A DNA stretch of 64,000 nucleotides, from positions 200,204 through 264,203 of IMG/VR virus record IMGVR_UViG_2030936005_000025; one strand, written 5' to 3'. Of the stretch, positions 699 through 16,804 are shown piece by piece. The DNA is from a virus (lineage: Duplodnaviria > Caudoviricetes). The notes under the pieces were generated by a model. It was not told the DNA's origin. It made no database searches and was given only the letters and a program-made list of their open reading frames with translations. A program made the position numbers and the translations under genes. Numbering within the stretch: position 1 is the first letter of the stretch; the number at the start of each line of letters is the position of its first letter.

Positions 699-774
699 GC
701 TTCCATAGTTCAGTCGGCAGAACGGTCGCCTGTTAAGCGATATGTCGCAGGTTCGAGTCCTGCTGGAAGCGCCA
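699..774 (+). tRNA. trnN: tRNA-Asn (GTT)
   Basis: 76 nt; acceptor GCTTCCA/TGGAAGC; anticodon arm GTCGC-CTGTTAA-GCGAT; T-loop TTCGAGT; discriminator G and encoded CCA. Confidence 0.97.
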
Positions 775-1857: not shown

Positions 1858-2112
1858 ATGAAAGTTGTGATTTACGGAAAACCTGCGTGCGTGTTCTGTA
1901 CTCGTGCGAAGGACTTAGTTAAGGCCAAAGGAATCGATCATGAGTATGTCGATATCATCGAAACCGGCATGGGTCGTGAAGGCCTGGAAGAAATTGTGGG
2001 AGGTCCTGTTACGACCGTTCCTCAAATCTTTGTCGATAATGTTCATATTGGTGGTTATACTGATCTGGTATCTCACCTTGTCAAGTCTGACGAATCCGAA
2101 GTAAAGGTGTAA
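1858..2112 (+). CDS. grx: Glutaredoxin (phage NrdC/Grx-like)
   Basis: YGKPACVFC active site; TVPQIFV…HIGGYTDL glutaredoxin signature. Confidence 0.95.
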   Translation: MKVVIYGKPACVFCTRAKDLVKAKGIDHEYVDIIETGMGREGLEEIVGGPVTTVPQIFVDNVHIGGYTDLVSHLVKSDESEVKV

Positions 2113-2114
2113 TT

Positions 2115-2252
2115 ATGGATTTTGATTTGGATGATCTGAACCTTGAAGGTTTGGATGAAGCTGAAGCTCGTAACAATGAGCGCCAGGAAGCGGCTGATAA
2201 AGCTGCGGCAGCGGTTGGCGATGAAGCTGACTGCGAAGGTTGTAAAATCTAA
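2115..2252 (+). CDS. 45-aa acidic peptide ending in CxxC (…DEADCEGCKI), resembling a ribonucleotide reductase alpha C-terminal tail; not in ORF track
   Basis: Translated by hand: MDFDLDDLNLEGLDEAEARNNERQEAADKAAAAVGDEADCEGCKI; starts 2 nt after the grx stop with AAGGTG upstream. Confidence 0.8.
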   Translation: MDFDLDDLNLEGLDEAEARNNERQEAADKAAAAVGDEADCEGCKI

Positions 2253-2278
2253 TTTTGATAAGGCGATAAGTTTTGACC

Positions 2279-2416
2279 ATGAAAAAGAAAAAGACTTCTT
2301 TGAAAGAAAAGATCCGTCGCCAGAATCAGAATGCTGAGAAGACCTTATACCTCGATGGCGCTGGTGATACTTTCACGATGACCAAAACCAAAGACGGCTA
2401 TAAGTTAAACGTGTAG
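2279..2416 (+). CDS. 45-aa basic peptide (MKKKKTSLKEKIRRQNQNAEK…); not in ORF track
   Basis: Open frame from ATG 2279 to TAG 2414-2416; AAGG upstream; stop lies inside a GCAA-loop hairpin. Confidence 0.6.
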   Translation: MKKKKTSLKEKIRRQNQNAEKTLYLDGAGDTFTMTKTKDGYKLNV

Positions 2417-13991: not shown

Positions 13992-16804
13992 TGTTTCACC
14001 TCAAAGTGTCCTTCAATTGCGACCTTACCTTTAAGGTAAAGTTCATTAACCATCTTGATAAACGTAAGCTGGTTAGGGGTAACAGTTTGAACAGAGAGAT
14101 TGCTGTATGGATGAACTGTAAAGAACTGAAGATCAAACCCAAGGATAATTGGGTCGTACTTCAACATCCATTCATAATCTTTGATGACCTGGTCCACTGT
14201 CTGTGGTGAATAAGGAACGGTTAATCCGGACGGTGTAGGTTCGGTCAAGAATCCTAAAATCAGGTCGTTCACGATTTTACTCAAGAACGGACTGAACAAG
14301 GTATACTTGTCTTCTGCCAGATAAATCGGTGAAGTCGGCTTATACGGTTTGTACTTCACATTCTGAGTGAGGTAGTCACCAATTTGTCCATCCAGCTCAA
14401 TCGCTTTATCGTAACCCCAATAGTCATCATAAAGATCGACGTACTTGTTAGCAGAGTAAATGTGCTTAACCTCGTAAGGCATGCCATTCAATGCTTTCAT
14501 GTTATCGCCGTGATGAATATCCTCAGCCCAATCAACAGAGTCAGTTAAATACAGACGACCGTTGATAATGGTTTTTGTTGGACGATCAATACGCAGGTTG
14601 TAGCGACCGTTATATCCAATCACGCCATCTGCAACAAAGCCCAACTCACTGGTATTCACCAAACCACGTGGAGATAAACCGGTACCGCGATACTGAATAA
14701 ACTGAGAGCCTTCCTTCAACCACATCTTGTTAATAATGTAGACATTGGGGAAATCCATAATGTAATCCACATTCTCAATCAGAGGATGTTGGTTCATCCA
14801 GATATCAATCTGACCTGGTTCGATAGGAAGCTGAATTCCCCCGATGCTCCACTTGAAGGTAATACCAAAACTCAGTGAGTTATCAAGGTGAGTCAGATAG
14901 AACTCGTTATAAAGATGAATGTCATTAAAGACAACCATCCCCACCCAGTTAACTGTATCGAACAGCCAATGAATATATCCATTCACTACTTCGTACTGCG
15001 TTGGATCTTCAGTGATGTCAATCCAATCACCAACAGGATATCCGCCCGGTGGTAAATCATTACCACCTTCATCTGTGGTTTCATCAGCACGATAGACTTT
15101 TAATTCACGCCCTTTTTCACCGTACGGATTTGTTCCATCGGTGGACACTTTGATTTCATTTGCAGTGATGTCACTTGGGTCATAATCAGGGTCGATTGCC
15201 CACTGTGCTTTATATACACGGAAGCCAAAGCCTTTACGCAAACGCACGTCGGTTTTGCTAATAACGTAACTCAACCAAGTTGAAGCCTGACCTAATGCCC
15301 ACTCGACATAGAAGCCATCTTTCTCTGGCATGTACCATTGCTGGTTTACTACTGAGACTTTACGAATCAGGAGCCCATTCTTATCGTATTCATAAGCTGT
15401 AGAGCTTTCGACAAAAGTAGGAGGGATTTGGTAACCCAGTCCTGAGGTAAAAGGTGCAGTCTTATGGAAGTTATCAAAGCCTGGATCTTCAGGTGTGATG
15501 TACGGCATGTACAGTGGAGAGTTAGACAGCGCAATACTGCAACCATGATAACCCAATGCATCGCGTACGGTCTCAGTGGTGAGTTTCTGAACGATGTCAT
15601 TCAATACCAGGTTGGTTGGCGCATTCTCTAATGTCGCTGCTTGCCATTCTTTTACGTTGGCAGCCGAACCTGTCATTGCACCCAGAATCTGAGAAGGGTC
15701 TTCTAACAGATACAGGTCATTGATACGACTGGATGTCGGACCGAGCAGGAACTTCCAACGAGTACTGTGATACGCCACAGTAACCTGAATGTCAGACATC
15801 TTGGTTTTCTTGGTAGTGTCTTCATCAATGAGACGACCGCCCAGATACTCAATGTAGTCTGCAGCCATGCCGTAATCTTGATGTGTCAACTGACGAACAG
15901 CATCTTCAGAGTTACGGTTAAAGTAATACGATTCGTTATTTAAGGTGTTGGTCACATAGAAGCGACAGTCCCCAAAGTAACGATATTCACGTGGTAAGTC
16001 ATTGAACCCAGGGAAGAGAATAACCTTGCGTTTACTGTCTAATGTCGACAGGTAATCCGGCATCGTCTTATAGTTATAAGACAAGATCATTTCAATTGAA
16101 GGGTCATAAGTAACCTCAACCAAATCGCCAGCACGTAACACCGCTGTTTCAATTGGTTTGATCTTACCGTTGTGGTAGAAAGAGACCATCCCCATGTCAT
16201 AAGCTTTCCACGCATTGTAGTTTGTCTTAATGCGTGTCCACTCATCCGCTGTTCCATAAACAGTCCCGATGTAACCGAAGCTGTACTTCAGTGCATTTTC
16301 AGGTGTCATGTTAAGAACATTGATATCCGTTGAATAACAGTGGATATAAAGATTCTTATCAAGCGGCATAGGGTAATTTTTGTTAACAGGAATAGCAACC
16401 AGCGTCACCCCGTCGAAGGCCGGCATAATCAATGTCCCTTCACGAGGGAACATCGAACCGTCTCCTTTATATACGTCAATTGCGACGGCACGGTTTTTAG
16501 CAAACGCTGCAGCAGTAACCCAGGTATCTACCGGATACCAACTCTTGCCACGATTTCCGAAGTTCCAGAATCCTGTATCAAGTCCACCCATGGTGAAGAC
16601 ATGATAGAACTGGTAGGTCGTCGGCAGATACCGACGTTTACCCATATAAACGAAATCGTTAACGTAGCCCTGTAAGCCAGACACACGTGCCAGTTTTATC
16701 TGGTACTGTGAGGGTAATTCAGGATTCCCCCACATATTGTGAACAGCATAGTCTACAAGCGGGTTATTTTCCTGGGTGTAAGTTTCTTGATAAGCAGTAG
16801 ACAT
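13988..16804 (-). CDS. Virion structural protein (phiKZ gp27-like, by synteny)
   Basis: 938 aa, aromatic and beta-rich; overlaps the next gene by 4 nt. Confidence 0.75.
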   Translation of the reverse strand: MSTAYQETYTQENNPLVDYAVHNMWGNPELPSQYQIKLARVSGLQGYVNDFVYMGKRRYLPTTYQFYHVFTMGGLDTGFWNFGNRGKSWYPVDTWVTAAAFAKNRAVAIDVYKGDGSMFPREGTLIMPAFDGVTLVAIPVNKNYPMPLDKNLYIHCYSTDINVLNMTPENALKYSFGYIGTVYGTADEWTRIKTNYNAWKAYDMGMVSFYHNGKIKPIETAVLRAGDLVEVTYDPSIEMILSYNYKTMPDYLSTLDSKRKVILFPGFNDLPREYRYFGDCRFYVTNTLNNESYYFNRNSEDAVRQLTHQDYGMAADYIEYLGGRLIDEDTTKKTKMSDIQVTVAYHSTRWKFLLGPTSSRINDLYLLEDPSQILGAMTGSAANVKEWQAATLENAPTNLVLNDIVQKLTTETVRDALGYHGCSIALSNSPLYMPYITPEDPGFDNFHKTAPFTSGLGYQIPPTFVESSTAYEYDKNGLLIRKVSVVNQQWYMPEKDGFYVEWALGQASTWLSYVISKTDVRLRKGFGFRVYKAQWAIDPDYDPSDITANEIKVSTDGTNPYGEKGRELKVYRADETTDEGGNDLPPGGYPVGDWIDITEDPTQYEVVNGYIHWLFDTVNWVGMVVFNDIHLYNEFYLTHLDNSLSFGITFKWSIGGIQLPIEPGQIDIWMNQHPLIENVDYIMDFPNVYIINKMWLKEGSQFIQYRGTGLSPRGLVNTSELGFVADGVIGYNGRYNLRIDRPTKTIINGRLYLTDSVDWAEDIHHGDNMKALNGMPYEVKHIYSANKYVDLYDDYWGYDKAIELDGQIGDYLTQNVKYKPYKPTSPIYLAEDKYTLFSPFLSKIVNDLILGFLTEPTPSGLTVPYSPQTVDQVIKDYEWMLKYDPIILGFDLQFFTVHPYSNLSVQTVTPNQLTFIKMVNELYLKGKVAIEGHFEVKQ

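Follow-up and report, generated by a model that had tools for sequence, protein, structure and literature searches.

Ribonucleotide reductase (RNR) limits the supply of DNA precursors, and the way in which class Ia enzymes have their active site re-reduced is deemed settled, through a tethered cysteine-pair tail that works with thioredoxin (Trx) or glutaredoxin (Grx). A gene in a tailed-phage genome raises the question of what such a tail might do when it is encoded on its own. The stretch analysed here, referred to as the window, comprises 64,000 nucleotides (nt), bases 200204-264203 of the 264,203-bp phage record IMGVR_UViG_2030936005_000025, which CheckV classes as complete. Directly behind a glutaredoxin gene (grx) it holds a 45-codon gene whose acidic product resembles the redox tail of NrdA, the RNR alpha subunit. 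A preliminary description of the window had read this peptide as a stand-alone tail that shuttles electrons or serves as a decoy. We find that the gene is real, that it belongs to a family shared by phages and the chromosomes of Erwinia-type hosts, and that its product therefore probably feeds into the DNA-precursor supply of the host. As the best single account we propose, tentatively and short of real confidence, a dithiol micro-protein that would be reduced by the phage Grx and act on host NrdA together with NrdB, the radical subunit, supplied by the phage.

The open reading frame (ORF) was confirmed: 45 amino acids (aa), strongly acidic, with the C-terminus DEADCEGCKI and an ATG exactly 2 nt past the grx stop codon (TAA, 2110-2112). 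It contains 15 Asp and Glu against 4 Lys and Arg (isoelectric point 4.05, net charge -11.5). The 2-nt gap, together with an AAGGTG site, suggests that grx and the peptide are translationally coupled. Among the 1371 ATG-initiated ORFs of at least 30 aa in the 264-kb genome, this is the only one to end in C-x(2-4)-C-K-[ILV], where 0.01 would be expected from residue frequencies, and not one of 200 simulations produced the strict terminal motif; chance does not account for the ending. A word-indexed search recovered 16 homologues, every one 45 aa long, in which M1, D2, F3, L5, D6, L13, E15, A16, E17, R19, N20 and R23 are invariant, as are A27 and A31 in the helix described below and the terminal D-C-x-G-C-K-I (D39, C40, G42, C43, K44 and I45), so that the conservation of the CxxC pair on which the shuttle proposal leaned holds throughout. 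Across six loci the ratio of nonsynonymous to synonymous substitution rates (dN/dS) is 0.05-0.19, with dS near saturation. The 45-codon ORF is thus a real gene under strong purifying selection.

Standard resources say little about it. Erwinia phage AH04 (Meadowvirus), which has Erwinia billingiae as its host, carries an orthologue whose annotation reads 'hypothetical protein AH04_15'. The peptide has no match in PDB, Pfam or NCBIfam; phmmer against 1.8 billion cluster representatives returned only its own cluster, and an Atlas feature search only unnamed clusters of 43-46 aa. Public sequencing runs listed no RNA holder. A tblastn search of 50,697 phage records gave no match and missed even the AH04 orthologue, probably because of low-complexity filtering.

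The likeness to RNR alpha tails is real and specific. Scanning the viral collection for D-C-[DE]-G-C-K-I followed by a stop returned, alongside small ORFs, full-length viral NrdA proteins (755-781 aa) that end exactly as the peptide does, and its last 7-8 residues are identical to the ends of some full-length NrdA. Many of 80 viral NrdA loci end in acidic residues followed by D-C-D-[AS]-C-K-I, C-E-A-C-T-I or similar, and Enterobacterales NrdA ends in D-D-[GD]-C-E-S-G-A-C-K-I. The peptide shows the hallmarks of such a tail, with two cysteines 2-4 residues apart within the last 10 residues, a short [KTVA][ILV] terminus and an acidic, flexible segment before the cysteine pair. It has no covalent link to a catalytic subunit (the PF02867 barrel), the ORF being without a Pfam domain. 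Judged from the alignments, what it has in common with NrdA is a terminal module and not full-length homology.

No RNR large subunit is encoded anywhere in the 264-kb genome, in which PF02867 and tblastn with E. coli NrdA both failed to find a match, and NrdD was not found there; the absence of nrdA noted for the window thus extends to the whole phage. An earlier suggestion that the phage's own NrdA might lack its tail cysteines falls away, there being no phage NrdA. Any RNR target must therefore be the host's, and of the two enzymes on which the shuttle had been supposed to act, that of the phage and that of the host, only host NrdA is left. The genome does encode an orphan class Ia NrdB of full length that shares 78% identity with its E. 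coli counterpart (NCBIfam NF006576, 721 bits). Its radical-site motif and Y356 are intact, and so is its alpha-binding C-terminus, which is host-like. The ORF next after nrdB encodes an unrelated 716-aa protein, and nrdB lies about 170 kb from the peptide gene. In two relatives with genomes of 260-267 kb, G026 (C1:5894-7090) and G027 (C1:75890-77781), nrdB matches its Pfam model in two frames, covering profile positions 7-190 and 189-281 and lying 0.3-1 kb apart, as though the gene had been split by an insertion such as an intron or a homing endonuclease.

A phage that has nrdB but no nrdA, and a peptide that resembles the end of NrdA, would also fit an inert relic of the 3' end of a lost nrdA, the other dismissive option being a spurious ORF. 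A relic is ruled out by dN/dS. The constant length (45 codons in each of the 16 homologues), the conserved start and Shine-Dalgarno-like site, the distance from nrdB, and full-length homology to a host micro-protein (below) and not to NrdA, likewise speak against this explanation, to which we give next to no credence.

Phages carrying nrdB alone are known (PMC3653736). AH04 has NrdB and lacks NrdA, as the window phage does, and an orphan, host-like NrdB together with a tail peptide and no NrdA also occurs in Erwinia phage RAY and coliphage phiEcoM-GJ1, so that three phage groups (Meadowvirus-like, RAY and Carltongylesvirus) combine the two genes. None of ten phage contigs with both NrdA and NrdB carries the peptide. 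We attach no statistical claim to this co-occurrence, since it was the peptide itself that led to several of the positive genomes.

Only two routes brought the wider family to light, a DNA pattern for the terminal heptapeptide and PHROGs. The viral pattern scan returned about 30 small ORFs (39-120 aa) with the peptide's ending, spread over many phage contigs. In PHROGs, the window peptide matches phrog_10239, a family with no assigned function, at E 8.5e-9 over profile positions 6-47 of 47 (4.1e-9 in a six-frame genome search); the same profile matches Pantoea phage PSKM (3e-19), a jumbo-phage member (1.4e-15), members from Chaseviridae and a host chromosomal peptide. Members occur in at least five phage lineages, with cultured examples in Pantoea phage PSKM (gp02) and its relatives (Dibbivirus), Erwinia phage Y2 (Chaseviridae), Proteus phage Myduc and Erwinia phage RAY. 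Annotation has overlooked the family or labelled it 'hypothetical', and in Erwinia phage Y2 and phiEcoM-GJ1 it is unannotated. NrdA is absent from 29 of 30 peptide contigs, the exception carrying an ORF that is not acidic and probably matched by chance, and orphan NrdB is present in 5 of the 30. Adjacency to grx and co-occurrence with NrdB are features of particular lineages within phrog_10239.

Within Chaseviridae the spacing of the cysteines varies. In Y2 the peptide gene and the annotated start of gp40, the 'Rz-like spanin', overlap, and in phiEcoM-GJ1 (Carltongylesvirus, NC_010106) a 46-aa acidic ORF in the same position, directly upstream of the 'Rz-like spanin' gene, ends D-C-S-S-G-A-C-A-I. 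The E. coli phage of this family thus has a C-x4-C tail and the Erwinia and Proteus phages C-x2-C. Like the window phage, phiEcoM-GJ1 combines an acidic peptide with an orphan NrdB and no NrdA; unlike the window peptide, its ORF has the spacing of E. coli NrdA and no adjoining glutaredoxin.

The same ending is met on other proteins. PF13876, the N4 gp49/Sf6 gp66 domain of no assigned function, is fused to an acidic D-D-C-[ED]-G-C-K-I tail in proteins of 118-119 aa (Table 1). A 208-aa jumbo-phage protein (L103:5791-6417) has a long, extremely acidic N-terminal extension and ends G-E-A-D-C-E-G-C-K-I. A 133-aa, non-acidic ORF ending FTYLDCEGCKI (TGA stop) recurs in prophage-like enterobacterial contigs (L096, L099, L102, about 35 more viral loci and L211); we rejected it as a family member, since it is unrelated beyond the ending, and it may or may not be a real gene. 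The neighbours of the peptide in other jumbo phages belong to no informative Pfam family, apart from one weak, sub-threshold match to an outer-membrane beta-barrel.

The phage peptide also has a chromosomal counterpart. In bacterial contigs representing one genome per species, the same DNA pattern identified about 75 chromosomal ORFs of 43-46 aa, in Pantoea, Erwinia, Tatumella, Mixta, Izhakiella, Serratia, Rahnella, Ewingella, Rouxiella, Sodalis, Hafnia, Budvicia and Leminorella; a survey of genomes at the level of the order gave 4 matches in 301 genomes. All of the ORFs identified by the pattern end [DE]-x-D-C-E-G-C-K-I, many share all ten terminal residues with the phage peptide, and every source labels them 'hypothetical protein'. 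Profile comparison of the phage and host families by hhalign gave a probability of 97.8% (E 8.8e-13, 37 aligned columns), and in their joint alignment [DE]-F-[DN]-[LIM]-D, the tail and a helix containing A-E..[KR] are common to both. On this evidence the phage peptide is homologous to a 43-aa host micro-protein, and in its C-x2-C spacing it copies that micro-protein and not the host NrdA tail. As in the phage, the host protein shows F-D-[IL]-D, an A-E-A-[KR] helix and, for its last ten residues, D-E-A-D-C-E-G-C-K-I, whereas the phage form differs by a 4-residue insert after the N-terminal motif and by its position beside grx. The notion that a tail was freed in this phage does not survive these comparisons, the peptide being one member of phrog_10239 with a homologue on host chromosomes.

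The host gene lies directly downstream of yedI (DUF808) in 44 of 72 loci, in the slot that yodC occupies in E. coli, and follows ylaC in Serratia. In Erwiniaceae it stands between yedI and a dgcQ-like gene (for example L206:3828-3956, with about 70 other loci in L206-L285), the carriers as a whole being Erwiniaceae, Yersiniaceae, Hafniaceae and Budviciaceae. The upstream regions of 30 host genes show a separate -10-like box for each gene, and GrxA is present in the hosts. A host peptide that replaces a lost NrdA or NrdE tail was considered and is ruled out, as the tails of both host proteins are intact.

The glutaredoxin beside the phage peptide is of the GrxA type. It scores 89.7 bits against a cut-off of 84 for NCBIfam NF008401 ('GrxA family glutaredoxin'), and its closest solved relative is E. 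coli glutaredoxin 1 (1EGO, 1GRX/1QFN; E 5e-18). E. coli Grx1 is a classical hydrogen donor of class Ia RNR, and 1QFN is its mixed disulfide with an NrdA tail peptide. The order grx then peptide, with a gap of 2-13 nt, recurs in the window, AH04 and four further loci (L009, L010, L011 and L012). L007 and L008 have the peptide first, then tRNA-Cys and then grx (active site CPYC), some 450 bp separating the peptide from grx. The gene orders thus indicate that, in this clade, the pair stayed together through rearrangement, and grx-adjacent homologues, proposed earlier as something to look for, do exist. The phage Grx proteins are about 50% identical, with active sites CVFC, CSFC, CPWC and CPYC, and the peptides 71-84% identical, so that the source of the constraint on the peptide is better conserved than the phage Grx. 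Among the 30 peptide contigs only the Meadowvirus-like ones have a glutaredoxin above the family cut-off (one other match was weak and sub-threshold); the Grx linkage is specific to this phage clade.

Both genes lie within a tRNA-rich stretch (window 699-774; L007:4244-4323; L011:4236-4311), in which the tRNA set varies among relatives: Asn in the window, and Ser, Cys, Trp or Met elsewhere, the tRNA-Cys of L007 being assigned an unusual ACA anticodon by ARAGORN. Directly downstream of the peptide is a 47-aa, strongly basic ORF that is kept in AH04 (AH04_14) and L007 (4884-5027) and has no family match; its charge is opposite to that of the acidic peptide beside it, which may or may not carry meaning.

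Adjacency to grx in this clade would equally suit a thiol-redox micro-protein with a target other than RNR, either a client of Grx or Trx or a soluble dithiol carrier for another enzyme or a stress response, in which case the likeness to NrdA would reflect shared recognition by Grx or Trx. The promoter-like -10 box of the host gene, its lack of nrd neighbours and the portability of the tail module, fused as it is to the gp49/gp66 domain in other phages, agree with this. Against it stand the identity of the last 7-8 residues, K-I included, to bona fide NrdA, which goes beyond the known needs of Grx or Trx recognition, and the repeated co-occurrence with orphan NrdB; we regard a target other than RNR as distinctly unlikely.

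AlphaFold2, run on an alignment of 31 sequences, predicts one helix at residues 13-41, with a predicted local distance difference test (pLDDT) score of 89-90 for residues 11-30 that drops to 57-68 across the last 15 residues. The peptide had been supposed to be probably disordered, which agrees with the model for the tail and disagrees with it for the middle of the helix; as modelled, the peptide is a helix with a flexible, cysteine-bearing end. The N-terminal motif, common to phage and host members in the superfamily alignment, is a candidate docking element. Its D-D-L/F-D-L-D possibly resembles D-D-L-S-N-F-Q-L, the alpha-binding peptide at the C-terminus of NrdB, a likeness that may be compositional. 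A precursor of a ribosomally synthesized and post-translationally modified peptide, with a lanthipeptide-type F-[ND]-L-D leader, was considered and rejected: F-D-L-D is present, but the C-terminal part has no conserved Ser or Thr, and no maturase gene was found among the host and phage neighbours (yedI, ylaC, dgcQ-like, grx and genes without a family).

Table 1. Features of the peptide locus and of related loci. Positions without a prefix count from the first base of the window; L-numbers denote other loci.
Feature	Position	Strand	Remarks
GrxA-family dithiol glutaredoxin gene, 84 aa, active site C-V-F-C	1858-2112	+	Pfam PF00462, E 1.5e-16
Shine-Dalgarno-like AAGGTG within the 3' end of grx	2104-2109	+	5 nt before the peptide ATG; read from the sequence
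45-aa acidic micro-protein gene, phrog_10239 member	2115-2252	+	ATG at 2115, stop TAA at 2250-2252
N-terminal acidic-hydrophobic motif M-D-F-D-L-D-D-L ... G-L	2115-2153	+	invariant M1, D2, F3, L5, D6 and L13
Predicted amphipathic helix, residues ~13-34, conserved E-A-E-A-R-N..E-R face	2151-2216	+	AlphaFold2 and invariant residues
C-terminal tail G-D-E-A-D-C-E-G-C-K-I (acidic run, CxxC, K-I terminus), RNR-alpha-tail-like	2217-2249	+	D39, C40, G42, C43, K44 and I45 invariant
47-aa strongly basic ORF	2273-2416	+	
Orphan nrdB of the window phage	genome 31068-32195 (L004:9069-10199)		
Y2 peptide gene	L204:3520-3633 (NC_019504 ~16146-16259)		
phiEcoM-GJ1 acidic ORF	L379:14576-14716		
PF13876-tail fusion	L137:1910-2266	-	
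PF13876-tail fusion	L161:1164-1520	+	
PF13876-tail fusion	L119:2819-3193	-	
PF13876-tail fusion	L127:1729-2109	+	

A long predicted helix with a single CxxC might also serve a purpose that has nothing to do with redox chemistry, the acidic helix acting as a protein or DNA mimic or as an anti-defence factor, or the CxxC binding a metal (Zn, Fe or Cu), for instance as a bridge from one peptide to a second or to a partner. Phage proteins that are small and very acidic frequently act as mimics or inhibitors, the neighbours in other phages offer no functional hint, and one member has a weak PHROG match to a DksA-like zinc-finger family (E 0.1). A zinc ribbon or zinc finger is ruled out, since four ligands are required and the 31 aligned members have two cysteines each and no conserved His, so that one chain alone could not form a zinc site. 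More generally, a non-redox role leaves unexplained the invariant Asp before the first cysteine and the terminal K-I shared with NrdA tails, as well as the Grx linkage and the recurrence with orphan NrdB. We consider it unlikely.

The module shared with true tails, the invariant Cys, Asp and K-I residues, the GrxA neighbour and the recurrence with orphan NrdB together make a redox role at host class Ia RNR the best reading. Under it the two cysteines would alternate between the dithiol and the disulfide state; the peptide would, in this phage, be co-translated with the adjoining GrxA-type Grx, kept reduced by it, and would carry reducing equivalents in trans to host NrdA. The orphan NrdB would likewise need host NrdA as its partner, since the phage encodes none. 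The phage would in this way supply a radical subunit, a reductant and an extra shuttle, driving host NrdA for the synthesis of phage DNA. That the peptide is redox-active, that Grx reduces it, that NrdA is its target and that its effect is stimulatory are steps that we infer, the last being favoured because these phages invest in NrdB. A wider proposition would be that a free RNR-tail micro-protein, encoded by at least five lineages of phages and by many of the Enterobacterales that lie outside the E. coli group, acts in trans on class Ia RNR, as a shuttle or as a regulator that competes with the tethered tail, and that the jumbo phages of this clade combine it with NrdB and Grx to take over host NrdA; in this full extent we hold the proposition to be doubtful.

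Several observations weigh against a redox role at host RNR. When the peptide family is aligned by hhalign with 32 NrdA C-termini, only the last 11-16 columns align, with a probability of 56-71%, and the NrdA tail of Erwinia-type hosts is C-x4-C where the peptide has C-x2-C. Most peptide-bearing phages have neither Grx nor any RNR gene. Conversely, four genomes (G031-G034) have an orphan NrdB but neither a phrog_10239 match nor a C-x(2-4)-C-K-I end, which rules out a strict coupling of orphan NrdB and peptide. The PF13876 fusions suggest that the tail is a recognition module able to move between proteins, and that something other than RNR may read it. On host chromosomes the gene's neighbours are not nrd, grx or trx, and no NrdR-type boxes were recognized by eye, without a formal motif search, upstream of the 30 host genes. 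The hosts also keep cysteine-pair tails on both NrdA (C-E-S-G-A-C-K-I) and NrdE (C-V-S-C-A-L), so there is no missing part to supply, and a tethered tail should outcompete a free one.

This last point suits a competitor better than a supplier. As a decoy or regulator of RNR, Trx or Grx, the peptide would be a tail mimic that occupies the entrance to the NrdA active site or titrates host thioredoxin or glutaredoxin, with hosts using it to tune RNR and phages copying it. Yeast Sml1, which competes with the C-terminal CX2C tail of R1, follows an analogous logic. A motif the same as that of true NrdA tails, the presence of the family in phages with no RNR gene and no Grx, and a conserved N-terminal motif and helix that suggest stable docking to a partner would all be in keeping with a decoy. 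The pairing of the peptide with orphan NrdB in three phage lineages, however, is sensible only if NrdA activity is wanted, the peptide is co-expressed in this clade with a reductant, the GrxA-type Grx, and a lytic phage has no evident gain from lower deoxynucleotide synthesis. A decoy accordingly seems to us improbable, and clearly so, and we retain the reduced shuttle acting on host NrdA as the preferred reading.

Whatever its exact action, a free copy of the tail has been kept by selection in plant-associated and clinical Enterobacterales (Erwinia, Pantoea, Serratia and Hafnia) and repeatedly captured by phages. If the proposed action on class Ia RNR is right, the peptide would be either a second means of delivering electrons, in soluble form, or a small RNR regulator that is new, and thus an undescribed layer in the electron supply or control of bacterial RNR and a new kind of auxiliary metabolic module in phages. 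It would also explain how phages that carry NrdB alone, a long-noted oddity (PMC3653736), exploit host NrdA. Our literature search found no paper with the motif and none describing a free class I tail peptide.

Among the closest known systems is the class Ia RNR alpha tail itself, as in E. coli NrdA (Cys754 and Cys759) and in the CxxC tails of many phage and bacterial NrdA proteins. The acidic flexible stretch, the two cysteines and the two-residue end are common to both, whereas the peptide is unattached to a catalytic domain and has an N-terminal motif and helix of its own. A precedent for a detached tail is the split class II enzyme NrdJa/NrdJb of Pseudomonas aeruginosa, in which the reductive dithiol piece is on a separate polypeptide: NrdJb folds as a subunit of its own, has IscU-like and zinc-finger domains and is encoded beside the tail-less catalytic subunit (Crona et al. 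2015, PMC4520616). That enzyme belongs to class II, however, and here there is no tail-less catalytic partner, the phage being without NrdA and the host NrdA and NrdE having kept their tails. Facklamia ignava is reported to have a glutaredoxin domain fused to NrdB (PMC6187632). Such a fusion likewise brings a reductant to the RNR subunits, with the link covalent in Facklamia, whereas in the phage the genes are separate and nrdB lies far from the glutaredoxin and its peptide.

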